Shown here one piece after another: positions 3,355 to 33,115 of a stretch of 64,000 bases of DNA. A model generated the notes under the pieces. The model did no database searches. It was not told where the DNA came from and worked only from the letters and a program-made list of their open reading frames with translations. Where the stretch lies: the NCBI GenBank assembly GCA_028820845.1, contig JAPPII010000061.1:65889-129888 (forward strand), given 5' to 3'. The position numbers and the translations under genes are program-made. The stretch's first letter is position 1. Each line of letters opens with the position of its first letter. The DNA comes from Candidatus Poribacteria bacterium. GTDB lineage: Bacteria > Poribacteria > WGA-4E > WGA-3G.

Positions 3355-6300
3355 ATGTATAGAGATTTAAATGAAAAGGATGCCTGTGGTGTCGGTTTTG
3401 TCGCGAACCGTTTTGGGAATCGGAGCCACGAGATTATTGAGATGGCGACGCAAGCGGTTACGAACTTGACACACCGGGGCGCGGTGGCGGCTGATGCAAA
3501 GACAGGTGATGGCGCGGGTATCTTAACACAAATTCCGGAGAAATTATTTCAAAAACAGTTGGCGAAACTCGGAGTTCGCTTGGACGCGATAACTGACCTG
3601 GGTGTGGGAATGATTTTCCTACCAAGGCGCGATCAGGACGCGCAGCGACAAAGCCGAGCACTCGTTGAAAAGACGTTGCAACAGTATGGTATGCCATTTC
3701 TCGGATGGCGTTCGGTCCCGGTTAATACGGCTGCGCTTGGCGATAAAGCATTAGAAACACTGCCGGAAATTCAGCAGGTATTGGTAGGGCGACCAGAGCA
3801 ACTCTCTGACGACGATTTTGAGCGGTCGTTGTATTTGATATGTAAAGAACTGGAACACCGTGTTGCAGCGGCTTCGCTGGATGACGAATTCCATATCGCC
3901 TCTTTTTCACATCGGACGATCGTCTACAAAGGATTGCTGGTAGCACCCCAGTTGGTGCCGTTTTATCTTGACCTAAAAGATTCGGATTTCCAAGCAGCAC
4001 TTGCTGTTTTCCATCAGCGCTATAGCACGAATACCTCTTCCACCTGGATGCTTGCCCAACCCTTCCACATGCTTGCACACAATGGTGAAATTAACACCTT
4101 GATGGGGAATCGGAATTGGATGCGGGCGCGTGAAGCCGACTTACAATCCCCCCTCTGGAATGAACATATCCAAAAACTCGTTCCGATTATTAACAAACAA
4201 GGGAGCGATTCAATGAGCTTGGATAACGTGTTAGAGTTGTTGACACACTCTGACCGTAGTATCTTGCACGCCATGATGTGCTTGATCCCAGAAGCTTATG
4301 AGCAGATTCCGGATATGCCGGATGTGTTGAAAACCTGCTACGAGTATCTTTCTTGTGTTAGTGAACCGTGGGACGGACCGGCGGCTGTCGCCTTTACGGA
4401 TGGTGTTGTTGTCGGCGCGAGTCTTGATAGAAATGGACTACGTCCCGCACGCTACAAAGTCACAGAGGATGGCACGGTCGTCATGGGGTCCGAAGTTGGC
4501 ATCATTGAACTTGATGAAAGTCGGATCATTGAAAAAGGTCGTTTGGGCCCCGGACAGATGATCGCTGTAGATACATCAGAAGGCAAATTGTTGAAAGATT
4601 CGGAGATTAAGCACAGTATTGCCAATCAGAAACCTTATGCTGAATGGGTTCAGAAAGGCACTGTAACCCTTCCTACCGATAAAATCAGTTCATCTGCTAC
4701 GGCGGAGACCGTTCCTGATCAGCTTCCTATATATCAGAAAGCCTTCGGATATATGACAGAGGATATAGAGCGATTTATCAAACCGATGATAACGGAAGCG
4801 AAAGAGGCAGTCGGTTCAATGGGTGATGATACGCCACCTGCTGTGATTTCTCGGCATCCGCGTTCGCTCTATAGTTACTTCAAACAACGTTTTGCGCAAG
4901 TTACAAATCCACCTATTGACTCAATCCGAGAGCGTTTGGTAATGTCGCTGACAACACACTTGGGGCGACATCATAGTTTGCTCACGGAAACGCCAGCGCA
5001 CGCTCGGCTCATTCGGCTACCCTCGCCAATTTTGACAAATACGGGCTTACACGCACTGCGGGAACTTGATATACCCGATTTTCAAGTGGAAACACTTTCT
5101 GTCTGTTTCCCGGTGGCTGCAGGTAAACAGGGCTTGGAAGATGCACTGGAAACGTTATGTCAACGCGCCTCTAAGGCAGTCGATGCTGGAAAAACGCTCC
5201 TTGTGTTGAGTGACAAAGATGTTAATTCTGACTTCGCACCAATTCCTATGGCACTTGCTGTTGGTGCTGTGCATCATCATCTGATCCGTGAAGGAAAGCG
5301 GATGCGAGCGAGTCTCATCGCTGAAACTGGAGATGCAAGAGAAGAGCATCATTTTGCTGTGCTTCTTGGTTATGGCGCAGCGGCGGTTAACCCCTACCTC
5401 GCGATTTCAACGATTGCCCAACTTGCCGCGGACGGTGAATTTGAAGAACTGACGGCAGAGAAAGCGATTGAGACCTATAAGGAAACTGTCGAAAAAGGTA
5501 TCCTGAAAATTATGGCGAAGATGGGTATTTCGGCGGTATCAAGTTACAGGGGAGCGCAAATTTTTGAAGCGCTCGGTATTAATGCGACGGTTATTAATAA
5601 GTGTTTTACAGGTACTACTTCTCGCTTAAGTGGCATCGGTTTTGCAGAAATCGCCGCTGAAACGCTTCACTTCCACACAAAAGCGTTTTTAGAAATTGAT
5701 GACGATGTTTCACTGGAAGAAGCAGGTTACTTCCGATTTCGGCGAAACGGGGAATTTCATGCGTTCAACCCGACGATGTTTAAAGCACTTCACAAGTTTG
5801 TTAAGGGTGGTGAGTCGGAAGATTATGATAAATATGCTGCTGCTGTTGAAAGTGGAGAGCCCTCCAGTTTACGGGATCTGCTTGCGTTCGGACCGAGTAC
5901 GCCTATTCCAATTGAGGAAGTGGAACCCGCAGAGGATATTGTTCGACGTTTCACAACCGGTAGTATGTCTTTTGGCGCATTAAGTCGTGAGACGCATGAA
6001 ACCTTAGCAATTGCTATGAATCGTCTTGGTGCGAAATCGGGAAGCGGAGAAGGCGGCGAGAATAGTACCCGCTTCAAACGTCAACCCAATGGGGACCTCG
6101 CCTCCAGCGCGATTAAGCAGGTAGCATCAGGACGTTTCGGTGTAACGCCAACATATCTCGCCTCGGCGCGGGAATTGGAAATCAAGATGGCACAAGGATC
6201 GAAACCGGGAGAGGGTGGGCAAATTCCAGGGCACAAGGTGACCGCTGAAATTGCCGCACTTCGACACTCTATCCCCGGGGTGCCACTGATTTCACCACCA

Positions 6301-7851
6301 CCACATCACGACATCTATTCTATTGAGGATTTGGCGCAGCTCATCTACGATCTGAAGCAGGCAAATCCACAGGCAAAGGTTGCTGTAAAGTTGGTATCTG
6401 AATTTCTCGTTGGAACTATTGCATCCGGGGTTGCAAAGGGCTATGCTGATGTGATCCAGGTAAGTGGACATGAAGGCGGAACAGGGGCGTCACCACTTAG
6501 TTCCATTAAAAACGCAGGAACACCTTGGGAACTCGGGCTCGCGGAGACCCAGCGTGCCCTCGTACAAAATGAATTACGAGATCGTGTGGTATTACGGGCA
6601 GATGGCGGAATGCGCTCTGGGCGCGATATTGTTATGGCTGCGATGTTAGGAGCGGAAGAATACGGTTTCGGGACGATAGCGATGGTCGCAACGGGATGTG
6701 TCATGGCGCGCCAGTGTCATTTAAATACATGTCCGGTTGGCGTAGCCACTCAGGATCCCGCGCTCCGTGCGAAATATCCCGGGACACCAGAGATGGTTGT
6801 CAATTTCATGCTTGGTGTAGCGAACGAAGTCCGAGCGATCCTCGCGAATCTTGGGCACCGATCCTTAAACGATGTTATTGGGCGACCAGAATTGCTCCAA
6901 CCAATTGATTTGGTGGAGTATCCGAAGGCAGCGATGCTGAATTTGGACGAAATTCTGATGCCTGCTGATCCGACGGGAACCCAGCCACGCTATCATCTAC
7001 AGGAGCGGAATGATCGCGAAGATAAGCCTCTTGATAATCAGATTCTGGAAGATGCAGCGAAAGCAATTACACAGAAAACATCAATTCAACTTTCTTATCC
7101 TATCCAAAATACGAATCGAACAGTAGGGGCGCGATTATCTGGCGAGATTGCGAAACACTATGGCGATGCCGGTCTGCCTGATAGAACAATTCAGTGTAAT
7201 TTTGAAGGCAGTGCTGGTCAGAGCTTCGGCGCCTTCTGTATCAGCGGTGTGCAGTTCGTATTAACCGGAGAAGCCAATGACTATGTAGGTAAAGGTATTG
7301 CAGGTGGTGAGCTTATTATTAAACCTGCTCCGACTGTGTCGTTCCAAACTTATGAGAATACGATTATCGGCAATACCGTATTGTATGGTGCCACAGGCGG
7401 CGCACTTTACGCAGCTGGGAGAGCTGGTGAACGGTTCTGCGTCCGAAATAGTGGTGCAACCGCTGTCGTTGAAGGGGTTGGAGACCACGGTTGTGAATAC
7501 ATGACCGCAGGGGTGGTTGTGATTCTTGGCGAAACTGGTAGAAACTTTGGGGCCGGAATGACAGGCGGCACTGCCTATGTCCTTGACGAAGAACAACAGT
7601 TTGAGAAGAAGTATAATTCGGATTGGGTGAAACTGGAGAAAGTGACCAATGAAACGGATATTAAGAATCTGCTGGCACTCATACAAAATCACGCCGCGTA
7701 CACTGGGAGCCAATATGCTGAGAATATTCTGACGAATTGGGAGACTTTCCTTCCACACTTCTGGAAGGTTGTGACCCCGCCGCCACCGCCACCACCAGCT
7801 CCTGTCCAACTTAAAAGGAGAGCTGCAACGCGGAGAACGCGGAAACGGTAA
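3355..7851 (+). CDS. gltB: glutamate synthase large chain, ferredoxin-type architecture (no small subunit gene follows)
   Basis: 1498 aa ORF. It has the N-terminal Ntn amidotransferase Cys (DACGVGFVA), a central FMN/3Fe-4S domain (SGEGGE..., KMAQGSKPGEGGQIPG, ISPPPHHDIYSIEDL) and a C-terminal GXGXG beta-helix. The tail ends in PPPPPPPAP plus an Arg/Lys-rich stretch. Confidence 0.9.
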   Translation: MYRDLNEKDACGVGFVANRFGNRSHEIIEMATQAVTNLTHRGAVAADAKTGDGAGILTQIPEKLFQKQLAKLGVRLDAITDLGVGMIFLPRRDQDAQRQSRALVEKTLQQYGMPFLGWRSVPVNTAALGDKALETLPEIQQVLVGRPEQLSDDDFERSLYLICKELEHRVAAASLDDEFHIASFSHRTIVYKGLLVAPQLVPFYLDLKDSDFQAALAVFHQRYSTNTSSTWMLAQPFHMLAHNGEINTLMGNRNWMRAREADLQSPLWNEHIQKLVPIINKQGSDSMSLDNVLELLTHSDRSILHAMMCLIPEAYEQIPDMPDVLKTCYEYLSCVSEPWDGPAAVAFTDGVVVGASLDRNGLRPARYKVTEDGTVVMGSEVGIIELDESRIIEKGRLGPGQMIAVDTSEGKLLKDSEIKHSIANQKPYAEWVQKGTVTLPTDKISSSATAETVPDQLPIYQKAFGYMTEDIERFIKPMITEAKEAVGSMGDDTPPAVISRHPRSLYSYFKQRFAQVTNPPIDSIRERLVMSLTTHLGRHHSLLTETPAHARLIRLPSPILTNTGLHALRELDIPDFQVETLSVCFPVAAGKQGLEDALETLCQRASKAVDAGKTLLVLSDKDVNSDFAPIPMALAVGAVHHHLIREGKRMRASLIAETGDAREEHHFAVLLGYGAAAVNPYLAISTIAQLAADGEFEELTAEKAIETYKETVEKGILKIMAKMGISAVSSYRGAQIFEALGINATVINKCFTGTTSRLSGIGFAEIAAETLHFHTKAFLEIDDDVSLEEAGYFRFRRNGEFHAFNPTMFKALHKFVKGGESEDYDKYAAAVESGEPSSLRDLLAFGPSTPIPIEEVEPAEDIVRRFTTGSMSFGALSRETHETLAIAMNRLGAKSGSGEGGENSTRFKRQPNGDLASSAIKQVASGRFGVTPTYLASARELEIKMAQGSKPGEGGQIPGHKVTAEIAALRHSIPGVPLISPPPHHDIYSIEDLAQLIYDLKQANPQAKVAVKLVSEFLVGTIASGVAKGYADVIQVSGHEGGTGASPLSSIKNAGTPWELGLAETQRALVQNELRDRVVLRADGGMRSGRDIVMAAMLGAEEYGFGTIAMVATGCVMARQCHLNTCPVGVATQDPALRAKYPGTPEMVVNFMLGVANEVRAILANLGHRSLNDVIGRPELLQPIDLVEYPKAAMLNLDEILMPADPTGTQPRYHLQERNDREDKPLDNQILEDAAKAITQKTSIQLSYPIQNTNRTVGARLSGEIAKHYGDAGLPDRTIQCNFEGSAGQSFGAFCISGVQFVLTGEANDYVGKGIAGGELIIKPAPTVSFQTYENTIIGNTVLYGATGGALYAAGRAGERFCVRNSGATAVVEGVGDHGCEYMTAGVVVILGETGRNFGAGMTGGTAYVLDEEQQFEKKYNSDWVKLEKVTNETDIKNLLALIQNHAAYTGSQYAENILTNWETFLPHFWKVVTPPPPPPPAPVQLKRRAATRRTRKR

Positions 7852-7940
7852 AGGATATATTCAAGGGTGGGTTTAGAAGAAAGTCTTGCTTGAGGCGAGT
7901 TTCCAGTTCTGTCGATAATAGTGTTATTTTGCAAAAGAAA

Positions 7941-7970
7941 AAGGCAGCGAATGCTGCCTTTTTCTTTTTT
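7941..7970. terminator. bidirectional rho-independent terminator between gltB and exbD
   Basis: Stem AAGGCAGC / GCTGCCTT with loop GAAT. It is flanked by an A-run on the left and a T-run on the right, and sits between convergent genes. Confidence 0.6.
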
Positions 7971-7987
7971 TAACTGCGTTGTATCCT

Positions 7988-8410
7988 TCAGTCTTCTTCC
8001 GATACCGCAAAAGCGATTTCGAGCCCCTCCGTTTTACTGGAGCGTTGTTTCGCTCGTTCTACCACGTCAATGACGACACCGTGTTTTGCACGTTTGTCCG
8101 CCTTGATAATCAAAGTGCTAATCTGGTTTTCATGTGCGGCAATGAAAAGTTCCATATCTTCCAGAGTTAACATTTCCTGATCATCAATCGATATGCGTCC
8201 GTCAGTACTAATGAAAAGGTTGTACTTCTTGCGTGTGAATTCGTGCTTCGTAGCGGAATCGGGTAAGGTGACGGTGAAAGGCGGAGGAACCCGCATAACA
8301 GCAGACACCATGAAAAAGATCAGGAGCAAGAATACACAATCAATCATAGGTGCCATCGGGATGTCATCATCATCGCCCGTTTTTTTCCGTCGACTCATGT
8401 TCAAAGCCAT
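7988..8410 (-). CDS. exbD: ExbD/TolR biopolymer transport protein
   Basis: 140 aa ORF. N-terminal PMAPMIDCVFLLLIFFMVS transmembrane anchor followed by a periplasmic domain typical of ExbD/TolR. Confidence 0.8.
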   Translation of the reverse strand: MALNMSRRKKTGDDDDIPMAPMIDCVFLLLIFFMVSAVMRVPPPFTVTLPDSATKHEFTRKKYNLFISTDGRISIDDQEMLTLEDMELFIAAHENQISTLIIKADKRAKHGVVIDVVERAKQRSSKTEGLEIAFAVSEED

Positions 8411-8462
8411 CTGAATTCTCCTTCTATAGAGGGTGGCATGCTATGTACGTCGCACGGAGCGT

Positions 8463-8912
8463 TCACTCCCTTGCGACGATAGCGAACCCGATTTTGTCTA
8501 TACCTGCCTGTTTCGCTATATCCATCACCTGAACGATCTGTTCATGAAGGACTTCTCGCTCGGATTGGATAATCAGCATGCTTGTCGCTTCCTCTGGTGC
8601 GTTGATGAACTGGTTAAACATTTCATCAATTTGGACGACAGTGTCGTTCAGCACCATAGTGCCTCTATCTTCACCGGGTTCCGGATTCGCGATTCGGACA
8701 GTCAGCCCTTTCGGTTTATCAGGTGAAGGTTTCCCTGGTGGGGGCAACTGCACCCGAAGCCCTGGAATGGGTGAGAAAGTTGTTGACACCATGAAGAAGA
8801 TCAGGAGCAGGAATACGCAATCAATCATAGGTGCCATACTGAGTGTTGGCGGCTTACGTTCTCTGATTTTCGTCGCAAGCAAACTCAATTTGGCTTCACC
8901 ATTTTGTTGCAT
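8463..8912 (-). CDS. exbD: ExbD/TolR biopolymer transport protein (paralog)
   Basis: 149 aa ORF. It carries the same SMAPMIDCVFLLLIFFMVS anchor as the neighbouring gene. Confidence 0.8.
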   Translation of the reverse strand: MQQNGEAKLSLLATKIRERKPPTLSMAPMIDCVFLLLIFFMVSTTFSPIPGLRVQLPPPGKPSPDKPKGLTVRIANPEPGEDRGTMVLNDTVVQIDEMFNQFINAPEEATSMLIIQSEREVLHEQIVQVMDIAKQAGIDKIGFAIVARE

Positions 8913-9025
8913 TTCAAAGTCTCCTTTCTCGTTGATGAGATTAGGGTTAAGGTATGCTGACCTTGTGTTCCCTACAAAGTCTGTAAGGAGAGGGCGGAAT
9001 GTAGTCTATCCGCCCGTTCCAAGAC

Positions 9026-10015
9026 TTAGGCTTCGCCTTCACCAACAATCAGCTGGTTCACAATCTCGGTGGAAACCTGAGAGATTTCGACCATGTGTCT
9101 GTTAACCCAGCTATCAAAGAGTTGGAAGAAAATCAGGCAAGGAATAGCAACTGTCAAGCCAGCAGCAGTTGTAAGGAGCGCCTGTGAGATACCACCTGCG
9201 AGCTGCTGTGGGTCACCCGTCCCTTCAAGTGCGATTGTAGTAAAGGCACTAATCATACCTGTAACAGTTCCCAGCAAGCCGAAGAGCGGAGAAACGACTG
9301 CGACGGTACCGAGGACCGGCAGGTTTCTTTCGAGTTCAGGAATTTCAAGGAGACTTGCTTCTTCGATTGCTTCCTGAATTTCCTCTTTAGTAATATCACG
9401 TTCTTCAATTTGCGCTTGACTGTATCGAAGCAGTCCAGCTTTAAGGACGTTAGCGAGGGGCCCGCCAGCTTCTTCACAAATCGAGACGGCTTCCATAATG
9501 TTCTCTTTCCGGAGGGAATCAGCGATACTGGCGATAAACTGTTCAGTTCCAATTCGGGAACGACTCCGGACAAAAGTGAAGAGCCTTTCGATAATGAAGG
9601 TTAGTGCGGTGATAGAACAGAGTGCCAGTGGCCAAAAGACGAATCCGAACTTCTGGAAGAAAGTTACGATATTGTCTTTTTTCGTCATCTTGAGGGGGAC
9701 GAAGTGGTCACCGCCATTAACAACTGTAACAGGTTTACCAAGCCGGTCGCCGTATCCTTCTCTATAAATACTGATGAGGTAGCGGCCTGCTGGAATACCA
9801 GAACGTTCATAATCGCCGTTGGCATCGGTCATTGCCTCAAATTCTTCTCCACTTTGGGCAACAATTTTAACCTCAACACCGTCAATCGGATTTTGTGCAG
9901 TCGTCGTATCAACAATCTGACCACGAACAGTTCCGCCGCTGTCTTGTGCGAGAACCGTACCAGCCGACATGCCGATACAAGCGATTAACATTAACACTAA
10001 ACTAAAACGAGTCAT
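9026..10015 (-). CDS. exbB: MotA/TolQ/ExbB proton-channel protein with an N-terminal periplasmic carboxypeptidase-regulatory-like domain
   Basis: 329 aa ORF with a signal peptide. A GTVRGQIVD...DGVEVKIV...TDANGDYERSGIPAGRYLISIYREGY beta-sandwich is followed by three TM segments and the ExbB motif LGLLGTVTGMISAF...AGGISQALLTTAAGL. Confidence 0.8.
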   Translation of the reverse strand: MTRFSLVLMLIACIGMSAGTVLAQDSGGTVRGQIVDTTTAQNPIDGVEVKIVAQSGEEFEAMTDANGDYERSGIPAGRYLISIYREGYGDRLGKPVTVVNGGDHFVPLKMTKKDNIVTFFQKFGFVFWPLALCSITALTFIIERLFTFVRSRSRIGTEQFIASIADSLRKENIMEAVSICEEAGGPLANVLKAGLLRYSQAQIEERDITKEEIQEAIEEASLLEIPELERNLPVLGTVAVVSPLFGLLGTVTGMISAFTTIALEGTGDPQQLAGGISQALLTTAAGLTVAIPCLIFFQLFDSWVNRHMVEISQVSTEIVNQLIVGEGEA

Positions 10016-10313
10016 TCGTTCTAATCCTCCTTAGGGTAACTTGCCGAATACGGCGGCAAGTCTCTACAAGTCATTTAATAAAGTAAGGTATTGTGTGGAT
10101 AAGGCGTAAACCTTTGTCCAACTACTCGGTTTTGTTTGTACTTGATCATTTCAGAAATTACACAGTTTCAGGTCGCGGCATCGTTGTGTTAAAACGCGCC
10201 TACCGTTCACAGCACCGTTCTCATAAAGAACACCTGAATGCTTAAGAAGTTACGCGCTTAATTCAAGTGTTAGAGAAGATAATATCCCAAATGGTATAGT
10301 GAGACGGGAGAAA

Positions 10314-10344
10314 TCGCTGGACACGATTTCCGCGTGTCCAGCGA
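10314..10344 (-). terminator. 11 bp hairpin between the OMP gene and exbB (attenuator or partial terminator)
   Basis: TCGCTGGACAC / GTGTCCAGCGA with a 9 nt loop, about 13 nt past the OMP stop on the minus strand. It is followed by only a weak U-tract. Confidence 0.35.
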
Positions 10345-10356
10345 TCCAGCTGTCGT

Positions 10357-13300
10357 TTAGAAACCCATCATTGCTCGCACGAAGGTTGTGTTACTCGTCG
10401 TGTGATCAAGCAAGATAGTCGTCCGTCGGTAACCAGCAAGGATAACAATGTTAAACCCAAGCCACTCACCACGGTTAATTGCTTGGACTTCAAATATCCG
10501 TGTTCGCAGGTCTGGACGGAAAAGCACTGGTACATCTTCGTCTTCCGGGAAGTTAGTCAAGTAATTCTTGAAGTTGTTATCCCGGTTAGTGAACTTCCGA
10601 TATTGGAAACCACCAAGGATGTTCATCCGTTGTGTGAACTGATAGTCGAGTCGTACACCGAGAACATCCTCACGACTTCTACGGTTGAAGCGCAAGTATT
10701 CGATCGGCTCGTCATCAGTAGGAACAAACAGACGAGGGTTAAGTGCGTCGCCAATTTCCTCTGCGCCGCGGTCAAACGCGCGATCCCAGATATATTTCAC
10801 CATTGGCGTAAGGGTTAAATCTTCACCGATCCTGTCAATGAAAGGTAGATCTCCGAGCGGAATTTCATACCGTGCCTTGAGAATCGTCTGCTGGTTGCGA
10901 ATATCCCGTTCTGGGTAACGACGCTTCTTCCAGTTTTCAGCATCGTAGATTAAGCCCGGATCCTCGGGGTCAAGTGCATTAATCCCGTGATCTGGATAGA
11001 AGGGGAATTCCCGCCTTTCACCACTCGCTCGCACCTGCTCAACAGGCACCATGAAGTCAACGCGTTGATCAGCGGTAAGTGGATCGTCATCGTCGCCGGA
11101 ACCTTCGACATCCAAGAAGAGTGCATCTGCCTCATCCTGCTCAAACTGTTTTTGCAGCACAACGAGGAACTTTGCTTCTAATGTCAGGTTAGGAACAGCA
11201 GTGTAGAGGAACTGAAGCGTTGTGGTGTTCACACGAGCGTTGTAGAAGTCAAGCTCGTCGGAAATCTGGACAGGTTCCAATTCGCCGACACGGAGGGTAA
11301 TCGTGTAATCCGGGATATCGTCGCGAACTCGCACGAATCGGTTTTGGAAAAGGACGGTTCCAAAATCTGGAATGTCCCGTTGATAGGTAACATGTAGATA
11401 CCTGGAATCGTTCTGCCGGCGGCTTGAGACTTGACTCTCATTGAGCCATCCGACTTTGAGTGAAAGGTTATCAAGGAGGTCATATTCAGCGAAGACATGG
11501 TATCCTTCTCTGTCTATTCCGTACTCATATTGTGGTTCAAAGTCATCCTCAAGTGAGTCGATAGTCCCGTTGTTGTTGAGGTCAACGAGGTCAGTAAACA
11601 CTGGCGGGTCAGCATCAAAGATGAGGAAATCTTCTTGGAAGTCAAGGACTCCGTTCTGGTCTCTGTCATCAGCGCGTGGCAGGACTCCGTCGAAGTCGAT
11701 ATCATCGGGCCAGTCGTCATCATCATCGTCATCCTCAATGAGGGCGTAATTGACTTCATCCCACGGGTCTCTTTCAGCTTGGGACTCAGGTGTTCTTTCC
11801 AGGGTGTAGGGTTGATCCCTATCGGTATTGGCACCGAAATTGAGGTAGGTTGTGGTGTACCCCGGATCAATATGATAGTAGACACCTTCAAGGTACAACT
11901 TTCCGAAGCGAGACCTGAGATGGATGAACCATGCGGATTCTCTACCCATTTCGCCGTCTCCGCCTTCATCAGTTCCGTCTCCGCCTAACCTGGCTTCAAA
12001 TCGTTCACCTTCGGTTTCGGAATAGGTAGGTATCCCGTTTCGATCTAAAGGTAAGCCTGTTGCTGGATCAATAGAGATACCCGTTTCTTCCTCACCATCT
12101 TCGCCGAGGATAGTGGGTTTAAGTCTACTAAATCCAATCTGCTCTTTGGGGATTGTCGGATACTGTTTATATTTCCCATTAATGGAGTAGTGAGCACGAA
12201 GGAAGACGTTACCGATGGTTCCTTCAAGATCGAGTCCATAGAGGACTGCTGCACGTGCTGCACCATAGCGGTAGCTGACTTTACGCGGTCTGCCTTCACC
12301 TGTCCAAGCATCTGGATTATCGTAAAGGTTTGCCCGGTTACTGGTATAATCGGAAGATTGCCCGTAGTTACCGGGGGCTTGAATAACATCACGGTATGGC
12401 ATTTCAATATGACCGTCTTCGGTTTTAATCCACTCTTCAGCAAACGGATCCGCCCCTTCAGCCGCTCTGTTTGCCTCACTGAAGCCGATGACGGCGATAT
12501 TGTAGTCACCTGCTACCACCATGTCAAAAACAACGGACTGAACGGTGCGAGCTTCAATACCGTGGTCTGCAAAGACCAAGTCATATCTCATCTTATTAAA
12601 GCCGTCAACAATCGCCCAGTCCCCAGACGAACGCACGTCAGAGGGAAGTCCACCCACATCAATTGGCGTGACATCGCTGGAAAAAACTTCAATTGTTTCC
12701 GTTTGTGCGGGTTGTGCTTTCGGATTGACACCTTCTTCAATTTCTTCGGGTGTTAAATCTTCCAATTCTTGTGTAACCACAGTAATTGTCATGCCTTTGA
12801 AAGCTGCACCGACACCACCCTGTAGGTTTTCACTGTGTAAGTTTTCATCGTATCCGGAGAATTGTGTAACGGAGCCATGATTGTCTTCAGGCGAATCGTC
12901 GCGGAAGACGACAGAAATAGTTTCCGGAGGCGTATTTGCGACGGTACCCATCATTGGGTTTTCAACGCGCTCTGGATGTTCTTTATGAAGATTGACATAA
13001 GTAAACCCAACGCGGAAAATATCGCCCAAAAGACCTTGTGCCCGGAAACCCATGAGGCGTGCATTTTCAATGTGCCGCACTCCAGCGTCTTCATTTAAAC
13101 CGTTCCGACGTCCGAGAGTCGGTGCGAGGTTTGCCGCTGCATCTGTCAATTGGACAGGGTTGGAGATACGAGAGTTAATAAGTGTAAAGAGATGGCGCTC
13201 CTGTGCAAAGGAGATATCCCAACGAAGTCCATCAAACTCGGTTTTATAGAGGATATAACGGTTTGGAAATAACGTAGAGGGCTTGAAACGCATGCTATCA

Positions 13301-13677
13301 CCGATGGCAAACTCGGTATATCTGCCCCGGAAACTGTCTTCAGTTAAAACAGTTCTATCTAACTGTGCCGAGAATCTCTCACTATCAAGCTGACCCGTCC
13401 AACCAACAAACAATTCACCGTTTTGGTCGAACTCTTTCTGCTCACGATAGTTGTAGACCTCGTTACCTTCAAGCAGCTCTTTACCAAACAGGTCATAGAA
13501 GAACTGGGGTTCTTCTTCCAACTGGAACCGCGCTGAAAATTTAGAACTCCCCTCAATCGTTGGTAATAGGGGTTCTTGTGGACCAAGGCTCTGTGCACCA
13601 CAACCGTAAAGCACAAAAGCACTCAGGATACAGGTCGCTACAAGTAAAACATCAATTGATTGTTTTAGCCTGTTCAT
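10357..13677 (-). CDS. very large outer-membrane lipoprotein/beta-barrel of unknown family with an acidic Ca-binding-like insert
   Basis: 1106 aa ORF with a lipobox-like signal (LSAFVLYGC) and a C-terminal aromatic residue (...VRAMMGF). The sequence shows long alternating beta-strand-like patterning. It carries a poly-Asp run plus DxDxDG/DxNxNG-like loops (DDDDDDDWPDDIDFDG, DDRDQNGVLD, DLNNNGTID). I saw no recognisable TonB-box or plug. Confidence 0.55.
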   Translation of the reverse strand: MNRLKQSIDVLLVATCILSAFVLYGCGAQSLGPQEPLLPTIEGSSKFSARFQLEEEPQFFYDLFGKELLEGNEVYNYREQKEFDQNGELFVGWTGQLDSERFSAQLDRTVLTEDSFRGRYTEFAIGDSMRFKPSTLFPNRYILYKTEFDGLRWDISFAQERHLFTLINSRISNPVQLTDAAANLAPTLGRRNGLNEDAGVRHIENARLMGFRAQGLLGDIFRVGFTYVNLHKEHPERVENPMMGTVANTPPETISVVFRDDSPEDNHGSVTQFSGYDENLHSENLQGGVGAAFKGMTITVVTQELEDLTPEEIEEGVNPKAQPAQTETIEVFSSDVTPIDVGGLPSDVRSSGDWAIVDGFNKMRYDLVFADHGIEARTVQSVVFDMVVAGDYNIAVIGFSEANRAAEGADPFAEEWIKTEDGHIEMPYRDVIQAPGNYGQSSDYTSNRANLYDNPDAWTGEGRPRKVSYRYGAARAAVLYGLDLEGTIGNVFLRAHYSINGKYKQYPTIPKEQIGFSRLKPTILGEDGEEETGISIDPATGLPLDRNGIPTYSETEGERFEARLGGDGTDEGGDGEMGRESAWFIHLRSRFGKLYLEGVYYHIDPGYTTTYLNFGANTDRDQPYTLERTPESQAERDPWDEVNYALIEDDDDDDDWPDDIDFDGVLPRADDRDQNGVLDFQEDFLIFDADPPVFTDLVDLNNNGTIDSLEDDFEPQYEYGIDREGYHVFAEYDLLDNLSLKVGWLNESQVSSRRQNDSRYLHVTYQRDIPDFGTVLFQNRFVRVRDDIPDYTITLRVGELEPVQISDELDFYNARVNTTTLQFLYTAVPNLTLEAKFLVVLQKQFEQDEADALFLDVEGSGDDDDPLTADQRVDFMVPVEQVRASGERREFPFYPDHGINALDPEDPGLIYDAENWKKRRYPERDIRNQQTILKARYEIPLGDLPFIDRIGEDLTLTPMVKYIWDRAFDRGAEEIGDALNPRLFVPTDDEPIEYLRFNRRSREDVLGVRLDYQFTQRMNILGGFQYRKFTNRDNNFKNYLTNFPEDEDVPVLFRPDLRTRIFEVQAINRGEWLGFNIVILAGYRRTTILLDHTTSNTTFVRAMMGF

Positions 13678-14504
13678 TACTTTGTTTTTCCTCCTTGGAA
13701 ATAGTGAATCGGAAGTTTGGGCAACAAAACAGTGATATAAGCATTGCTTGCTTTTTCGCTGTATCTACCCCGGTCTCCGAACAAAAAACCTTAAAAATGG
13801 ATGAAAACTGCTTTACTTGTAAACGAAAAGGTTAAAATATCGTTAGTAAAACTAACAGCATTTCAATTCAGGGTTCTCGGTTACTGCTGTACGGTCGCCT
13901 CAAAATTCTGGATCCCGCGCCAAGCGTATAGAAAGCAAGTCTCCTTCACAACAAATTAAGGGTTAGTCTTGCGGAAGTTAAACACGCGGTGAAACGCCAC
14001 AAAACTGTTCTTGGTTTTTAAAGTAGCACTGATTTGAATTTCTGTCAAGTTTTTAACAGGAAAAATATATTCATTAGGGTGATTTTTGCATATCATACCG
14101 AAAATGTAATATATTTTCAAGTTTTAAATATATCAATGCTGTTTACATTCGTCTTTTAATCCGTTCTAAGGCAGGCAATCAATATCGAGAAAGCGTTCTG
14201 AAAAATTGTACCAGCAAAGCCAATCAAAATACACGAATCGTGAGCCTTGAAGAGTTTCAAATGCTGCTGTTGTCTGAGACAGCAGCGAATCAATAGTGAA
14301 ATCGTTTTGTCTTAAGGTACGGATTAAGAGTATCGAAAACCCAAGCATAACTTCATAAAAATTTTGCCTATGCTGTGGGCTTAACAAATCACTGTGTGTT
14401 AGACATACTATATATTATACCATATTTTGAGAAAAAATGATATTTTTTTTTCAAAATTCTGAAACTGAAACCACAAATGTTGCGTAACACCTCATTTAAA
14501 TCTC

Positions 14505-15911
14505 TCAACTTACAGCGGTTTTACTGAAATATTCAAGAAGTAAAACAGTTGTGATCCCAAGAACCGTTCCGCCGATTCCAGCAATAACAAGAATGAATCT
14601 GAGTTGTGGACTGACAGGAATCTTCCTCGGCACAGCACGATCGATGATTTCGATGTCTCCTACCTGATTGCGAGAAGATGTTAACTTGGATTCGGCATAT
14701 AATATCTCAGCTTCAAGTGAACGTTTGGCAATTTCTTCAGCAAGGGCGTTAGTCTTCTGAATTTTGGCTCCCATTTGCGTTAGAATAATCTGGTTTTCCG
14801 GGATTTTTTCCAGTAATTGCGCTAGTTCAGTTTCTAATGTATCGAGTTCTTGCTTGAGGCGTTTCGCTGCATTTTCATAACGCGAGAGGCTTGGGATGAA
14901 CGTTATCAACTGGTTCTTTATATAAGTATAATGTGCAGAGGGACCGGAGGTAACGGTAGTGGTCTTAGGTGAGATTTGTGTGTTTTTCTGCTGAATATCA
15001 GCGATTTGTGCGTCAAGCCCTTTCAATTCCGAGGGGGTCTTTCCTACTTTTTCTTTGTCAGCGACACGCTGTGATTCGAGGTTAAAAAGTTTCTCTTGCT
15101 GAAAGAGCCAGATAGGGTCATAGGTGGTGGTTTCGGAGAGTTGTGCTTGTTCGGGTAGGAGGCTTAATTGTTCCTGCAGATACGCGATATGGATACGCGT
15201 TGCATAGGCTTGTTGCTGATTTGTTTCAATATTTTCGCGAACATTGGCGTAACGTTCCAGCAAATTGGTAAACGTTGGGACCCATGTCTCTGAACTACCA
15301 TTTTGTCGAACGAATTGTAGAAGGGTATCTAAGTCCTTTTTTATTTGAGTTTGAATTTCTCCTTGTTTTTCTTCAAGAAATTCCATGCGTTTTCTAAGTT
15401 TCGTTTCTTCATCTCCACGCCGCAAGGTTTTCATGTCTTGCGCGAGTTGATTGACAAGAAGTGCTGCATTGCGCTCTCCCCCTTCTGCTTCAGTCAAAGC
15501 GATCGAAAGATGGATATAATCAGAATCTGGGTTTAGTTGTGCCTTCAGCATTCGTTTGAGTTTGCCGATCGGTGGGAGGAGAGCGACTGCGTCCGCGTTC
15601 CCGTTTTCTTCAAGATTCTCGATTGCTGTTTTCAGCATTGATTCTGTGGAGAAGCGGGCACTGATTGTTTCCATTTCCCGGCGGTCAATACCACCAGAGA
15701 GGACGCTTTGAAAGAGATTTGCTGAAGGAAGAGAAGGCGTTGCACTGGGTTGGACAAGCAACATTAGAGTGGAGGCAGCATACGTTTTAGGCAAACGGAG
15801 TGAAATAACTAAGGCAGTTCCTAATACCAGCAGAATACTTAGGCAGAATGTAAAGGTGTGTTTTCGGATGAGTTGAAAATAGTCACGTAGGTGTGCCTCC
15901 TGTTGCGACAT
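14505..15911 (-). CDS. Wzz/GumC-like polysaccharide chain-length determinant protein (no kinase domain)
   Basis: 468 aa ORF. It has an N-terminal TM plus a PKTYAASTLMLLVQP motif, a long coiled-coil periplasmic region and a C-terminal TM. Confidence 0.65.
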   Translation of the reverse strand: MSQQEAHLRDYFQLIRKHTFTFCLSILLVLGTALVISLRLPKTYAASTLMLLVQPSATPSLPSANLFQSVLSGGIDRREMETISARFSTESMLKTAIENLEENGNADAVALLPPIGKLKRMLKAQLNPDSDYIHLSIALTEAEGGERNAALLVNQLAQDMKTLRRGDEETKLRKRMEFLEEKQGEIQTQIKKDLDTLLQFVRQNGSSETWVPTFTNLLERYANVRENIETNQQQAYATRIHIAYLQEQLSLLPEQAQLSETTTYDPIWLFQQEKLFNLESQRVADKEKVGKTPSELKGLDAQIADIQQKNTQISPKTTTVTSGPSAHYTYIKNQLITFIPSLSRYENAAKRLKQELDTLETELAQLLEKIPENQIILTQMGAKIQKTNALAEEIAKRSLEAEILYAESKLTSSRNQVGDIEIIDRAVPRKIPVSPQLRFILVIAGIGGTVLGITTVLLLEYFSKTAVS

Positions 15912-15970
15912 GGATATACAGAATTTCTGCCCCGCGTATGGACTAGAAATTACCCCTCCTTCTCTTCCAT

Positions 15971-16531
15971 CTATAGGTTATTAGCAACGCGAATTTCTGC
16001 GTCATTAAAGGCTTCGTCGTGCCATTCGGTTATCCGCCATTCCTCATTTCTTTTTTCAAAAATGAAAAGATTGTCACCTTCAGCGAACCATCCGGTGAAT
16101 CCACCTTCAAGCGACTGACCGTCTGCAACGAATCCTTGAATTCTATAGTGATTCCGCACTTCTGCTCGATTGCCATCTTCATTCATGGAAATTTCTGGCG
16201 GAGCGGAGAGTTCTATCTCAATATCCTGAAACTGCTCGAAAACGCGAGTCGCGGCATCACGTTCTTGGCGGATGTCGTCAAATTCCAGATCATCTGTCTT
16301 GTCCCCGTCTGTCCCCATGTCGGAAACGTAAAGGAAACCATCTTCCCAAAAGGTGTTGATGTAAGCATTAACATCTTCGGTTTCATAACCTTCACGCCAC
16401 CGTTCTAAGACTTTATTAATTTGAAGGAGTTCTTCAGGTGGAACCTGACCGACTTTTTCGGCATCCCCACACCCCATAAAACCTATGAGTAAAATGAGTA
16501 TACCTCCGATTTTTATCAAACTCCTGAACAT
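15971..16531 (-). CDS. lipoprotein with NTF2/SnoaL-like (DUF4440-type) fold
   Basis: The track ORF 15971..16669 overlaps the upstream gene. The internal start MFRSLIKIGGILILLIGFMGCGD (ATG at 16531) gives a clean lipobox. The rest of the protein resembles small NTF2-like domains. Confidence 0.5.
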   Translation of the reverse strand: MFRSLIKIGGILILLIGFMGCGDAEKVGQVPPEELLQINKVLERWREGYETEDVNAYINTFWEDGFLYVSDMGTDGDKTDDLEFDDIRQERDAATRVFEQFQDIEIELSAPPEISMNEDGNRAEVRNHYRIQGFVADGQSLEGGFTGWFAEGDNLFIFEKRNEEWRITEWHDEAFNDAEIRVANNL

Positions 16532-16553
16532 AATGGATGTTCTCCCTTTAAAT

Positions 16554-17126
16554 TTAAAAAGTTTTAACAATACCAAAATAAAGATGTGAAGGGGTGGCAC
16601 CGATTTCAATCCCCAATTTTTCCATGTCTTTTGCATCTTGCTGGATGGATTCGACCAAGGTGGTAGCATTATAGAAGTTTGAACTCACATAAGAGTCGAT
16701 GAGGCTATAGACCCAGATACCAATCCCGGTATACATAAAAAATGTTCTGAGTTTGTAGCGTTGATTTGCGTAGTCGTATCTTTCTAATACCCCGGCTTCG
16801 TCATGGGGATTTAAACTGGCATACGTTGCGTAGTCATTGTAACGATTATTAAAAGATCTCTGTGCCAGCAAGGCACCGATAGCAGAACCGCCTACTCCGA
16901 GAACAGTCAAGCTACCTCGGAAGTAGCTGCGGCTATAAAATTGTCCCCACCCTGGGAAAACGGCGGAACGAACCATCGCACCGATTGGCGAAACAAGTTC
17001 GACCTCTTCCTCGGTGTCAACTGTTTTCTGCTCCGAGTCCGTACTATTTTCAGCCTCCTGTGCAAAACTGGCATGAAGGGTAAAAAATAGTAGTAAAATA
17101 ATTAGAAAAACTCGCAAAAATCGCAT
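16554..17126 (-). CDS. membrane protein with a PGWGQ motif (DUF5683-like)
   Basis: 190 aa ORF with a signal peptide, the motif SAVFPGWGQFYS, and two further hydrophobic segments. Confidence 0.45.
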   Translation of the reverse strand: MRFLRVFLIILLLFFTLHASFAQEAENSTDSEQKTVDTEEEVELVSPIGAMVRSAVFPGWGQFYSRSYFRGSLTVLGVGGSAIGALLAQRSFNNRYNDYATYASLNPHDEAGVLERYDYANQRYKLRTFFMYTGIGIWVYSLIDSYVSSNFYNATTLVESIQQDAKDMEKLGIEIGATPSHLYFGIVKTF

Positions 17127-17198
17127 CTAATGTGTAGGTGTCTGGACTTCACGCTTCCAAGAGGTTGCGCGAAGTCCATCTTAACTTCCATGAATATC

Positions 17199-18866: not shown

Positions 18867-19324
18867 GAGAATCCTCCTATCTTGACCCTCCCACACCTAA
18901 AGGAGTAGGATTCTTCCTTCAACGCAGTATGCCCGCCTGCCATACCCACCGAAGTGTCTGACGTAATTTTGGGTCTTACTTCTGCTCCAGAAGCGTTTAG
19001 CCTCTCGGTATGCCCTACCGCGAGGGTTTCTTTTCTTTTCGTCATGATTTTTTCTATCTCGGTTCTCTGATGAAGATAGCTCTTGGGCGACTCAGGTTTA
19101 CCGCAACTTGTCCCTCTGGGGATCCGCCAATTCTCACTATCGGTGTTTAACGCTACACATACGGTGCCAGTTGATTGCCATCGCAATGTGGACTTCGGTT
19201 CGGCTTACAGTGTAGGGACACTTGTCTCAAATCACCTTTTAGATACTCCCGCACGAAACACGCAGGACTGACCCAAAGCTAAAGCATTAGGATTTTTAAG
19301 TATTATCTTCAAAGTGTTGCAAAA

Positions 19325-19353
19325 ATGATACAATTTCCTTCAAGAATTGTCAA
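19325..19353 (-). promoter_or_regulatory. sigma70-like promoter (TTGACA-17-TATCAT) for the SR-protein operon
   Basis: On the reverse strand, TTGACA lies at 19353-19348, followed by a 17 nt spacer and TATCAT at 19330-19325. This implies a ~450 nt leader to the ATG at 18866. Confidence 0.45.
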
Positions 19354-19372
19354 GGATTAATTCGTTCCACTT

Positions 19373-20107
19373 TCAATCTTTAGGAATCAGTTTAATTCCT
19401 CTTTTTTTGGCATGTTCCCGGGCGAGCGGCGTAATGATCGCGCCGTTTGGATAAACTAACTCGCGCACATTCGCATCCAGATTTGAAATAGTCGATGCAC
19501 TAATCAAAGACTTTTCCGAAGTGGCAGGTGAACTGTCTGTTTTCTCCGTGACGAATTCGGCAATTTGCATCATCGGGACCAATTGAACGCCAAGTTCGGA
19601 CAAAAGGTTTACATATTCAGCTTCGATAGCACCGATTTTTGTAGAAGTCTCACCTTGATTAAGTGCGTCGGAGGCGGCTATAACCTTCTTTCCTTTAGAG
19701 AGTGCTTCAAAAACGAGATAACTACACGGTGTATCCACCAATCTTAACGCAAGTTTCGCGACCATTGGATGCGAAAAGACAGGGAGGACGATTTGCTGAT
19801 AGGTCGCCACAAAAGCTGATATATCGCTGAGCGCATTTTCCTCCAAAGTGTTATCTTCACCAAACGCAGCATGAATCGATTCAAGATTTATGACTTTAGT
19901 TGCGAGTTCGGACAGAATTATTGTAATTTTCCACCCATTCTGCTGGCATATCTGAAGCTGCTTGAGGGGCTCATCCAATTCAAATTGTGTAGCACCAAAG
20001 ATAGCGAGTAGTTGTTTTTCGTGTACAGCCTGCGTCGTAGTAGTTGTCTGCTCTTGTAGTACCTTCTCTACGACTTTCCTAATCTGGTCAATCAGTTCAT
20101 GATTCAT
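19373..20107 (-). CDS. flavoprotein-like (Rossmann) protein with an N-terminal amphipathic helix; BMC-associated by context
   Basis: 244 aa ORF. The N-terminus MNHELIDQIRKVVEKVLQE is followed by a poly-Thr linker. The core resembles the flavoprotein fold (VLPVFSHPMVAKLALRLVDTP...KKVIAASDA). The C-terminal motif is AIITPLAREHAKKRGIKL. Confidence 0.4.
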   Translation of the reverse strand: MNHELIDQIRKVVEKVLQEQTTTTTQAVHEKQLLAIFGATQFELDEPLKQLQICQQNGWKITIILSELATKVINLESIHAAFGEDNTLEENALSDISAFVATYQQIVLPVFSHPMVAKLALRLVDTPCSYLVFEALSKGKKVIAASDALNQGETSTKIGAIEAEYVNLLSELGVQLVPMMQIAEFVTEKTDSSPATSEKSLISASTISNLDANVRELVYPNGAIITPLAREHAKKRGIKLIPKD

Positions 20108-20139
20108 GTTAGTTCAAAACTATAGGAAATCTGCGAATT

Positions 20140-20853: not shown

Positions 20854-20898
20854 TTGTGATTCGCCTTTTTGGTTAGGAAATCCCGATTAACAAATAGT

Positions 20899-21174: not shown

Positions 21175-21320
21175 ATTAATTCTAATAGCCTCCCATTGAA
21201 AACTTAGCAATGAACGTGTGAGTAGCTGTAAGATATTCTGTGTGTGCAATACGGAAGAGCCCACATGAAAACGGAGGAAACTGAGCAGTAATGCATAAGT
21301 ACCTCACTCTATATAATATA

Positions 21321-31105: not shown

Positions 31106-31210
31106 TCTTTTCTTGTATAGAATCTTAGCGTGTATTCGTTGCTAATTTCTTTTGAGAGACGCGCGTCTAATCCGTAAAGCAAAACACGGACAATACAAGG
31201 AGTTCACAAA

Positions 31211-33106: not shown

Positions 33107-33115
33107 AGAGACATT

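Follow-up and report, generated by a model that had tools for sequence, protein, structure and literature searches.

A giant plug-less outer-membrane barrel linked to an ExbB-ExbD-ExbD motor in Poribacteria, a candidate trans-envelope machine

The stretch of poribacterial DNA analysed here (64 kb, hereafter the window) carries on its minus strand a gene for a giant outer-membrane beta-barrel lipoprotein, followed by exbB and two exbD genes for a proton-motive-force (PMF) motor. An earlier reading of the sequence alone (the original prediction) had described these as a four-gene operon lacking TonB, with the motor dedicated to one very large outer-membrane component. A check of the open reading frames (ORFs) places the four minus-strand genes, the lipobox and the terminal Phe of the barrel protein where that reading had put them, and Pfam supports the assignment of ExbB and of both ExbD proteins (Table 1). 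The bidirectional terminator that closes the motor genes is likewise borne out, and folds at −23.6 and −23.7 kcal/mol on the two strands (z-scores −5.8 and −7.0). The signal peptide and the CarboxypepD_reg domain of ExbB are additions to the earlier description. As detailed below, barrel and motor are neighbours in several phyla, and their surroundings point to the translocation of a surface polymer as a plausible role.

The signal peptide of the barrel protein ends in the lipobox L-Y-G-C26, which is invariant in 14 relatives, and its C-terminus reads ...VRAMMGF. The protein has no match in Pfam, NCBIfam (E ≤ 0.1), PADLOC or the PDB sequences, in single-sequence and profile searches. In particular, the 22-strand TonB_dep_Rec domain was not detected by Pfam, NCBIfam or the PDB profile search, nor was DUF6029, the Wzp-type 18-strand porin family, by Pfam. 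An AlphaFold2 (AF2) model, built on a 66-sequence alignment and of moderate confidence (pLDDT 67, pTM 0.68), contains ∼26–30 long antiparallel strands between residues ∼58 and 1105. Residues 27–56 are disordered and the first strand begins at residue ∼58, with no globular plug at the N-terminus; Pfam finds no Plug domain either, in agreement with what had been noticed by eye. A Foldseek search of the PDB returned outer-membrane barrels only: the best matches are to the 30-strand barrel of Deinococcus SlpA (E 5e-10 to 1e-8, with TM-scores of only 0.23–0.26), followed by generic porins, barrels of TonB-dependent transporters (TBDT), ushers and LptD, and there is no PgaA entry among the 50 matches listed. 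The profile searches and structure prediction, proposed earlier as checks, gave no plug, no receptor domain and only generic fold matches. Because it has no plug domain and no relative in Pfam, NCBIfam or the PDB, I take the protein for a giant barrel of the outer membrane and consider it almost certain that it is no TonB-dependent receptor; that identity was rejected for want of a plug and of a TBDT domain.

An exhaustive profile search (E ≤ 1e-3, counting representatives of 50%-identity clusters) yielded a barrel family of 288 representative proteins, most of them about 850–1050 amino acids long with signal peptides, and homologous over their full length in at least five phyla. Named members come from Ignavibacteria, KSB1, Marinimicrobia, Latescibacterota and "Bacteroidetes" metagenome-assembled genomes (MAGs), and are all annotated "hypothetical". 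The family is also present in Poribacteria, and the close homologues of the window genes are annotated Candidatus Poribacteria, which are sponge symbionts. Its members share the motifs YDxFG, FxGxRWD, TYVNxH, DDSPxD and VA[GN]DY together with three consecutive EF-hand-like calcium-binding loops, which are the signature of the family; the window protein has all of these. Its three loops, DIDFDGVLPRAD, DRDQNGVLDFQE and DLNNNGTIDSLE, follow the pattern D-x-[DN]-x-[DN]-G-x-[ILV]-x3-[DE]. Ten diverse members of the family matched no Pfam family, apart from one weak match to SlpA_C. An insert domain of the window protein (residues ∼236–472), modelled alone (AF2, pLDDT 76), has no significant fold match in the PDB. 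Finally, the periplasmic N-terminal segment is conserved, and in poribacterial barrels it follows the near-invariant pattern GPxxPLLPx[IL]...KFSxRFQLEEEPxFFYDLFG. A canonical TonB box was not seen there, and the segment could be another kind of coupling box.

The motor proteins score well above the Pfam gathering cut-offs (MotA_ExbB 111 bits against 22.9; ExbD 81 and 83 bits against 25.4). Among NCBIfam models the top-scoring are TolQ and TolR, and since all scores lie well under the equivalog cut-offs (TolQ 105 vs 221, ExbB 74 vs 206, TolR 48 and 50 vs 127, ExbD 37 vs 153), ExbB and both ExbDs form a divergent subfamily. The best PDB match of ExbB is the Serratia ExbB 7ajq, and exbD1 was aligned to the ExbD structures 7ajq and 6tyi. 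The two ExbD paralogues are ∼33–36% identical, and each has a PMIDCVF segment aligned to the D25 region (for exbD2, in alignment with the E. coli and Serratia ExbD). ExbB keeps the GTV motif of the second transmembrane (TM) helix (GLLGTVTGM) and the TT motif of the third (LLTTAAGL). Judged from these alignments, the catalytic residues of the motor, those of the proton pathway, are kept. At the position of E. coli ExbB E176 and TolQ E173, the window ExbB has a Gln (GISQALL), and the adjacent Thr residues are retained.

The proposal of a single four-gene operon did not stand, as a conserved terminator-like hairpin after the barrel gene and published RNA-seq speak against it. Barrel and exbB lie 342 nt apart, and a 13-bp hairpin (fold z-score −5.05) is found directly 3′ of the barrel stop codon. 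The closer loci L001–L003 (related loci are given L-numbers throughout) retain this hairpin, with base changes that compensate each other, and in L004 its place is taken by a canonical GC-hairpin and T-run terminator. The spacer further contains a conserved sequence block and a stem-loop just before the Shine-Dalgarno sequence of exbB. On the other side, the Wzz-like gene that had been placed immediately upstream of the barrel in fact ends 827 nt from it. The intervening region (13678–14504) contains a promoter-like element for the barrel gene, conserved in L001, L002 and L006 and presumably acting as its promoter, and then a conserved leader of ∼335 nt with several invariant blocks. As no Rfam family matches within 7800–19500, where sub-threshold matches fell on the terminator only, this may be a regulatory leader. 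In metatranscriptomes, exbB-exbD-exbD forms one polycistron with zero read coverage on its two flanks (Jahn et al., 2016; PMC5087111). Given the hairpin, the conserved spacer, the promoter-like element and the published RNA-seq, barrel and exbB-exbD-exbD are a conserved gene cluster of separate transcription units, and not one operon.

Table 1. Positions of the genes and other elements of the barrel-motor locus in the window, and of accessory genes in related loci (L-numbers, each with its own numbering).
Feature	Sequence	Positions (nt)	Strand	Size or residues	Evidence and remarks
Bidirectional intrinsic terminator	window	7936–7970			GGCAGC-GAAT-GCTGCC with flanking A- and T-runs; between convergent gltB (+) and exbD2 (−)
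exbD2	window	7988–8410	−	140 aa	Pfam ExbD 2.5e-23; transmembrane Asp kept
exbD1	window	8463–8912	−	149 aa	Pfam ExbD 1.1e-22; transmembrane Asp kept; Pro-rich linker after the TM helix
exbB	window	9026–10015	−	329 aa	MotA_ExbB 3.5e-32; signal peptide and periplasmic CarboxypepD_reg
MotA_ExbB channel domain of ExbB	window	9083–9460	−		Pfam
CarboxypepD_reg domain of ExbB	window	9707–9931	−	residues 29–103	Pfam 7.5e-13
Barrel-exbB spacer	window	10016–10356	−		three conserved elements
Stem-loop just 5′ of the exbB Shine-Dalgarno sequence	window	10040–10060	−		locus alignment
Conserved block GCGCGTAACTTCTTAAGCATTCAGGTGTT in the spacer	window	10229–10257	−		locus alignment
Hairpin 3′ of the barrel stop codon	window	10313–10345		13 bp	
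Giant outer-membrane beta-barrel lipoprotein	window	10357–13677	−	1106 aa	ORF and AF2 model
EF-hand-like calcium loops of the barrel	window	11512–11715		residues ∼655–722	three motifs
Conserved N-terminal segment of the barrel	window	13480–13599		residues 27–66	periplasmic
Promoter-like element of the barrel gene	window	14020–14048	−		TTGACA-17 nt-TACTTT
PCP-like (Wzz/GNVR) inner-membrane protein	window	14505–15911	−	468 aa	no kinase domain
SnoaL-like lipoprotein	window	15971–16531	−		SnoaL_4 6e-5; likely start M47 of the ORF; lipobox F-M-G-C
DUF5683 small envelope protein	window	16554–17126	−		DUF5683 5.7e-11
Tyr/Arg/Ser-rich secreted or anchored protein	window	17199–18896	−	565 aa	no Pfam match
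OPX gene	L008	6839–8023			between SnoaL-like lipoprotein and PCP
OPX gene	L019	6099–7346			between SnoaL-like lipoprotein and PCP
OPX gene	L052	1610–3007			between SnoaL-like lipoprotein and PCP
OPX gene	L095	12388–13971	−		between SnoaL-like lipoprotein and PCP
OPX gene	L102	6555–7739			between SnoaL-like lipoprotein and PCP
OPX gene	L112	823–2025			between SnoaL-like lipoprotein and PCP
DUF4159 genes	L009	15540–16805, 16840–18294			after ExbD
DUF4159 genes	L014	10575–11855, 11867–13138			after ExbD
DUF4159 genes	L028, L038, L085, L091				after ExbD

Loss of the barrel-motor synteny in related genomes had been set beforehand as one of the findings that would refute the original prediction; the link proved to be conserved, and this refutation was not borne out. 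The order barrel-exbB-exbD-exbD is kept in L001–L006, with barrel identities of 66–93%, which amounts to six of the seven judgeable poribacterial loci at the level of species genomes, among the matches listed. It is also found in at least seven barrel lineages that are less than 60% identical, in several phyla. The survey was then widened with a degenerate DNA motif built on the third calcium loop. This motif matches 14 of 15 known loci, once per gene, and gave at least 120 metagenome loci, which were examined with ad-hoc hidden Markov models (HMMs). The resulting counts, all among the matches listed, are to be read with the facts that the HMMs derive from few seed sequences, that the loci are partly redundant and that the scan finds only members retaining the calcium loop. 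Where at least 6 kb are available downstream of the barrel, ExbB and ExbD follow on the same strand in 16 of 27 loci, and TPR (tetratricopeptide repeat), ExbB or DUF4159 genes in 22 of 27. After clustering of the barrels at 60% identity, ExbB is present in 9 of 21 informative clusters, a TPR protein in 14, and any of ExbB, TPR or DUF4159 in 17. If a genome has a few exbB genes, one of them should lie next to the barrel by chance in about 1% of cases, a figure that is an estimate and not computed. I consider it probable that motor and barrel are functionally linked.

Two main forms of the cluster can be distinguished. In the FCB-group phyla (Ignavibacteriales, KSB1 and Marinimicrobia), type A has the order F5/8-type-C (discoidin) protein with a CHU_C domain of the type IX secretion system (T9SS) type-B kind – PorP/SprF-like protein – barrel – ∼1040-aa TPR protein – ExbB – ExbD – DUF4159 – DUF4159 – (DUF5683). 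In most clusters, the first DUF4159 protein of type A consists of a cytoplasmic tail, a TM helix with an [S/A/T]xxxH motif and its invariant His (e.g., LAISVILHFLPVV), a Lys/Pro-rich linker and the DUF4159 domain; for comparison, the transmembrane sequence of E. coli TolA is ISAVLHVILF. The second is a lipoprotein. From its sequence features, this pair looks like a TonB-like force transducer with an outer-membrane partner, apparently a new one. In L011 there are three DUF4159 genes (15396–16688, 16725–17972 and the contig-cut 18112–18663); both full-length products have the TonB/TolA-like anchor, and no lipoprotein paralogue was seen. Among the matches listed, two arrangements exclude each other: one ExbD with two DUF4159 proteins (7 loci), or two ExbDs without DUF4159 (15 loci), the latter being that of the window. 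In the 18 clusters checked, ExbD is never followed by a Pro-rich TonB-like ORF. Loci of the Latescibacterota type contain as many as three barrels in tandem, a TPR protein and DUF4159, with no motor in the cluster. Such tandem paralogues, two or three in number and followed by TPR and DUF4159 genes, occur in L013 (2157–11018), L015 (7173–15594), L046, L124 and L129, which include Latescibacterota-type and other loci.

Type B is the poribacterial form, in which the barrels are lipoproteins and ExbB always carries CarboxypepD_reg. Among the matches listed, this fusion is present in 13 of 13 type-B and in none of 14 type-A ExbBs, and by this comparison it is a marker strictly tied to the poribacterial barrel subtype. 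One type-B clade, B1 (L008, L019, L052, L093, L095, L102 and L112), shows the following order where the contig reaches far enough: DUF5683 – SnoaL-like lipoprotein – OPX protein (for outer-membrane polysaccharide export) with Poly_export and SLBB domains – polysaccharide co-polymerase (PCP) with Wzz and GNVR domains, and with a kinase in L019 and L052 – barrel – ∼1500-aa TPR protein – ExbB (CarboxypepD_reg) – ExbD – ExbD. These clusters begin at DUF5683, the genes further upstream being divergently transcribed. In the clade of the window (the window, L001–L006, L035, L039, L088 and L125), OPX and TPR are absent from the locus, and the PCP-like gene, the SnoaL-like lipoprotein and DUF5683 are retained; OPX was found absent from L001–L006, L018, L035 and L039. 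A full-length homologue of the TPR protein (33–37% identity, 98–100% coverage) is nevertheless encoded elsewhere in 5–6 Mb poribacterial genomes. On the 5.3-Mb poribacterial contig of L136, for example, a 1577-aa homologue (7825–14734) directly follows an extracytoplasmic-function (ECF) sigma factor and an anti-sigma factor of the zf-HC2 kind, and has no linkage to the barrel locus. With OPX and TPR missing from the locus and the TPR homologue kept elsewhere, the locus of the window is a reduced form of a richer conserved cluster. At another poribacterial locus, L007 (7627–16146), a 777-aa WD40-like protein with a T9SS-like C-terminal domain precedes the barrel, a local break in synteny.

The PCP-like protein of the window passes the GNVR threshold (1.5e-8; 34.8 bits, cut-off 27.7), and its Wzz score (1.6e-4; 22.4 bits) is below the cut-off of 25.5. 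Its orthologues in L008 and L019 are above both thresholds, that of L052 is below the Wzz cut-off of 25.5 (22.0 bits), and those of L019 and L052 have a ParA-like kinase domain. A PCP-like gene lies upstream of the barrel in all type-B loci, in which the SnoaL-like lipoprotein is conserved as well. DUF5683 is the one accessory gene in common with the clusters of other phyla (L009, L013, L091, L097, L109 and others). The product of the next gene (565 aa) has a hydrophobic segment at its N-terminus, is rich in Tyr in the middle (YYRYYSPYYGSYHSYYRG) and carries a long tail rich in Ser, Thr and Arg. This protein is 50–82% identical in L001, L002, L004 and L006, and because it is conserved in close poribacterial loci only, its membership in the system is uncertain.

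None of the ORFs of the 64-kb window is rich in Pro, has a TonB/TolA anchor of the SxxxH type or matches TonB in Pfam, so that the earlier statement that no TonB/TolA-like transducer is encoded in or near the locus extends to the whole window. As a description of the system, "TonB-less" holds for the window and not more widely: relatives pair the motor with a giant TPR protein and some with a TonB/TolA-like DUF4159 protein, the TPR homologue is present elsewhere in genomes of the window's clade, and expression of a TonB-annotated gene has been reported for a poribacterial genome. The window has no TonB-dependent receptor, no TolA, TolB or Pal domain and no OPX gene. A Tol-Pal system was accordingly rejected, as TolA, TolB and Pal are all missing, and a Zorya-like or other defence motor was rejected on the lack of a PADLOC match.

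Several other features of the window were recorded. Just beyond the cluster (19373–21264) lie a family-less 244-aa protein, PduL (20140–20853) and a bacterial microcompartment (BMC) shell protein (20899–21264), followed by a 295-aa TPR protein (21321–22208). On the other side, the large subunit of glutamate synthase (3355–7851) has an unusual poly-Pro and basic tail (PPPPPPPAPVQLKRRAATRRTRKR, 7780–7851). A heavy-metal resistance-nodulation-division (RND) efflux set occupies 28069–37173; it comprises two outer-membrane factors of the OEP type, a CusB-like adaptor in which HMBD is repeated four times, and a pump resembling AcrB/CusA. A DUF6785/DUF6784 membrane protein (45445–47376) lies between two HepT-like proteins (43941–44777 and 47363–48319), of which one is a fusion with a nucleotidyltransferase.

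The locus and its motor have already been published, under another interpretation. Jahn et al. (2016; PMC5087111) described the "BMC-A genomic region", consisting of ExbD*, ExbD, "BTP", an exopolysaccharide-like gene, PduL and a BMC shell gene, in which "BTP" corresponds to ExbB with its carboxypeptidase-regulatory domain. ExbD*, ExbD and BTP were transcribed at 2.6–4.9 times the housekeeping level, immunolocalisation placed ExbD* at the cell membrane, and the function proposed was TonB-dependent import of vitamin B12, a TonB-annotated gene being expressed in the poribacterial single amplified genome (SAG) 3G. The 1106-aa protein is listed there as "hypothetical protein" only, and neither the barrel family nor its cross-phylum link to the motor was noted (PMC5087111). 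No description of the barrel-motor system was found in the searchable literature, and the barrel family, its linkage to ExbBD, TPR and DUF4159 across phyla, the OPX/PCP context and the CarboxypepD_reg-ExbB as a subtype marker all appear to be undescribed. A Fibrobacter proteomics paper listing ExbB and TPR proteins concerns an ordinary exbB-exbD-tonB operon.

The reading that I favour, with a probability of roughly one half, is that of a dedicated Ton-like motor acting on a giant plug-less barrel, most likely for the translocation of a surface polymer, probably a polysaccharide. In this model, a specialised, proton-driven ExbB5-ExbD1/ExbD2 motor in the inner membrane, its ExbB bearing a periplasmic CarboxypepD_reg domain, would do mechanical work on the lipid-anchored barrel of ∼26–30 strands. 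The barrel would most likely be the gated outer-membrane conduit of the polymer pathway, working with the PCP-like protein, the SnoaL-like lipoprotein and DUF5683, and a periplasmic TPR protein of roughly 1570 amino acids, encoded elsewhere in the clade, would probably take part. Force would be passed not by a locally encoded TonB but by family-specific partners, namely the TPR protein, the PCP-like protein (with its coiled coil), the CarboxypepD_reg domain that ExbB carries and the barrel's conserved N-terminal tail; for the window, these are candidates for the coupling together with a TonB acting in trans. The idea of an export or surface-remodelling machine, raised in the original prediction, has gained weight because in sister lineages OPX (Wza-like) and PCP (Wzc-like) genes immediately precede the barrel gene. 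These genes would suit a terminal outer-membrane conduit for a polysaccharide or another surface polymer, as would the pairing of TPR protein and barrel, which recalls AlgK/AlgE, BcsC and PgaA. That a surface polymer is exported or gated has, in my estimate, an even chance or somewhat less.

A number of observations weigh against this reading. Barrel and motor are on separate transcripts; in L007 the barrel has no adjacent motor, and an N6-adenine methyltransferase-like gene takes its place; and in L013, L015 and L038 there is no motor in the cluster. Besides the lack of OPX in the window, no glycosyltransferase, Wzx or Wzy gene was seen among the window ORFs scanned or the loci inspected, nor a linked ABC transporter among those window ORFs, which counts against export, and the OPX of the sister lineages ends in a hydrophobic helix (...INWNAVYSAVMVFSTLYAVFK), on account of which it might form a pore of its own. 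The discoidin protein, which is the commonest neighbour of the barrel in other phyla, fits uptake as well as export.

Energised uptake is one alternative: the barrel would serve as a gated pore of giant size that imports large substrates, for example glycans, like SusC/SusD in function and made of other parts, opened by the motor through family-specific transducers. Every Ton-type motor known to act on an outer-membrane barrel drives import, and the TonB/TolA-like DUF4159 protein after ExbD in several clusters would suit such a task. Moreover, in 45 of 62 loci of other phyla, among the matches listed, the gene that immediately precedes the barrel encodes a secreted discoidin protein with a T9SS type-B C-terminal domain, often with an SprF-like anchor, and glycoside-hydrolase-like genes flank L009 and L014. 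Against this, the discoidin and SprF genes are absent from the lineage of the window, where the neighbours are PCP-like, and in its sisters OPX, both hallmarks of export, and the cluster has no linked gene for a periplasmic binding protein or an importer of the inner membrane. I hold uptake to be unlikely. The motor might instead be an ordinary Ton motor that serves classical TonB-dependent receptors with a distant tonB, for example in B12 import, with the barrel an unrelated, coincidental neighbour. Such independence would agree with the separate transcripts, with L007 and with the expression of a TonB-annotated gene in SAG 3G and with the TonB-dependent B12 uptake proposed there (PMC5087111). 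The recurrence of the order barrel-(TPR)-ExbB-ExbD in those seven or more divergent lineages of several phyla makes coincidence improbable, as do the occurrence of the CarboxypepD_reg-ExbB with this barrel subtype only (among the matches listed), scores far under the ExbB/TolQ/ExbD/TolR equivalog cut-offs and the lack of a TonB-dependent receptor in the window.

Two further explanations are less probable still. The system could be an envelope tether or stabiliser, Tol-Pal-like or SlpA-like, in which the motor organises the link between the outer membrane and the inner layers and nothing is transported. The tether barrel of Deinococcus SlpA is the best fold match, some family members match SlpA_C weakly, TolQ and TolR are the top-scoring NCBIfam models for the motor, and "TolA-binding protein" annotations are found among the more distant TPR homologues. 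I consider this very improbable, however, given that the SlpA TM-scores are low, that SLH, OmpA-like, Pal and TolB genes are all missing from the cluster, and that its OPX/PCP and discoidin neighbours indicate the handling of a surface polymer or ligand. The least probable of the explanations is a surface-adhesin or motility machine, in which the motor would act through a platform in the outer membrane to move or expose a surface protein, like the Agl-Glt system of Myxococcus. Agl-Glt is of similar composition, combining a single TolQ-like protein and a pair of TolR-like proteins with TPR proteins and barrels of the outer membrane, and relatives of the window locus encode adhesin-like T9SS cargo and an SprF-like protein beside the barrel. 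These adhesin and SprF genes are absent from the window's lineage, no Pfam match suggested Glt proteins (no search aimed at Glt was made), and Poribacteria are embedded in sponge tissue, with no motility reported in the literature examined.

A polymer-handling motor would be of wider interest. To my knowledge, ExbBD/TolQR motors have two established tasks only, TonB-dependent import and the maintenance of the envelope by Tol-Pal, the exporters Wza, Wzp, AlgE, BcsC and PgaA are thought to be passive at the outer membrane, and I know of no report of a PMF motor or a giant TPR protein in Wzp systems. A conserved motor-barrel-TPR module, accompanied by OPX/PCP in some lineages and by a new TonB-like DUF4159 transducer in others, would thus widen the range of processes known to be powered by such motors. 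There is a real chance that the system is a new class of trans-envelope machine. Less likely than not is the specific proposal that this is the first ExbB/ExbD-type PMF motor wired into an OPX/PCP polysaccharide pathway, gating or pulling polymer through a giant calcium-binding barrel by way of new coupling parts (the CarboxypepD_reg domain of ExbB, the giant TPR protein and, elsewhere, a DUF4159 transducer with its lipoprotein DUF4159 partner). On that proposal, Ton/Tol-like trans-envelope machines would have a third class, and one that is widespread among Poribacteria and in the FCB group. With a function assigned to the module, a large family labelled "hypothetical" in all source annotations seen, across Poribacteria, Ignavibacteria, KSB1, Marinimicrobia and Latescibacterota, would no longer be without one, and a highly expressed locus of a dominant sponge symbiont, formerly read as one for vitamin B12 uptake, would be reinterpreted. 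As the family is present in Ignavibacteria MAGs, it would be directly testable by genetics if cultured members carry the cluster.

Among known systems, the Ton system is alike in its ExbB/ExbD proton motor of the 5:2 type, which has the transmembrane Asp and, in TM2 and TM3, the Thr motifs, and in the genetic tie of the motor to one outer-membrane beta-barrel, to which some relatives add an [S/A]xxxH TonB/TolA-like anchor. It differs in that the barrel described here is a plug-less lipoprotein without TonB_dep_Rec and of ∼26–30 rather than 22 strands, and that the locus has a CarboxypepD_reg domain on ExbB, two ExbD paralogues, sub-equivalog scores for the motor proteins and no protein with a TonB C-terminal domain. 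The Deinococcus SlpA (7zgx, 8ae1), the top structural match, is comparable in barrel size; apart from the low TM-scores, there is no SLH domain or coiled-coil stalk here, and no relationship at the level of sequence. To Agl-Glt of Myxococcus the likeness lies in the motor gene count of one ExbB and two ExbDs, no Pfam match suggesting Glt proteins, which were not specifically searched.

That OPX/PCP pathways can terminate in a porin of their own, the beta-barrel Wzp, is established (PMC9603273, PMC12819527). The WzaX/S/B-WzcX/S/B-WzpX/S/B pathways of Myxococcus (PMC9603273, PMC9601211, PMC12819527) resemble the present locus in the PCP-like gene upstream of the barrel, in the row OPX – PCP (kinase) – barrel of the sister lineages and in the position of the barrel as last outer-membrane component. 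In contrast to them, the barrel here is 2–3 times larger than the 18-strand Wzp, without detectable homology (no DUF6029 or PgaA-type match), the cluster has a proton-driven motor and a giant TPR protein, and the window has no OPX. The AlgK/AlgE, BcsC, PgaA and PelB exporters share with most relatives of the window locus the pairing of a very large periplasmic TPR with a barrel; the window locus differs in having no TPR gene and no synthase gene, in its unrelated, much larger barrel and in the presence of a motor.

Force transducers of the vWA type, driven by such motors, adjoin TPR-tolQ-tolR-tolR genes (Williams-Jones et al., 2025; PMC12204202). The relatives of the window locus are alike in the order TPR – TolQ-like – TolR-like(s), followed by a TonB-like anchored protein with a conserved TM His and a non-TonB alpha/beta C-terminal domain. 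This domain is DUF4159 and not vWA, a giant barrel is part of the cluster, and the window's clade has no transducer gene in the locus. Lastly, the "BMC-A region" (PMC5087111) is the same locus, with the motor transcribed and ExbD* in the membrane; there the motor was read as serving TonB-dependent B12 import, and here as most likely acting on the giant barrel encoded beside it.

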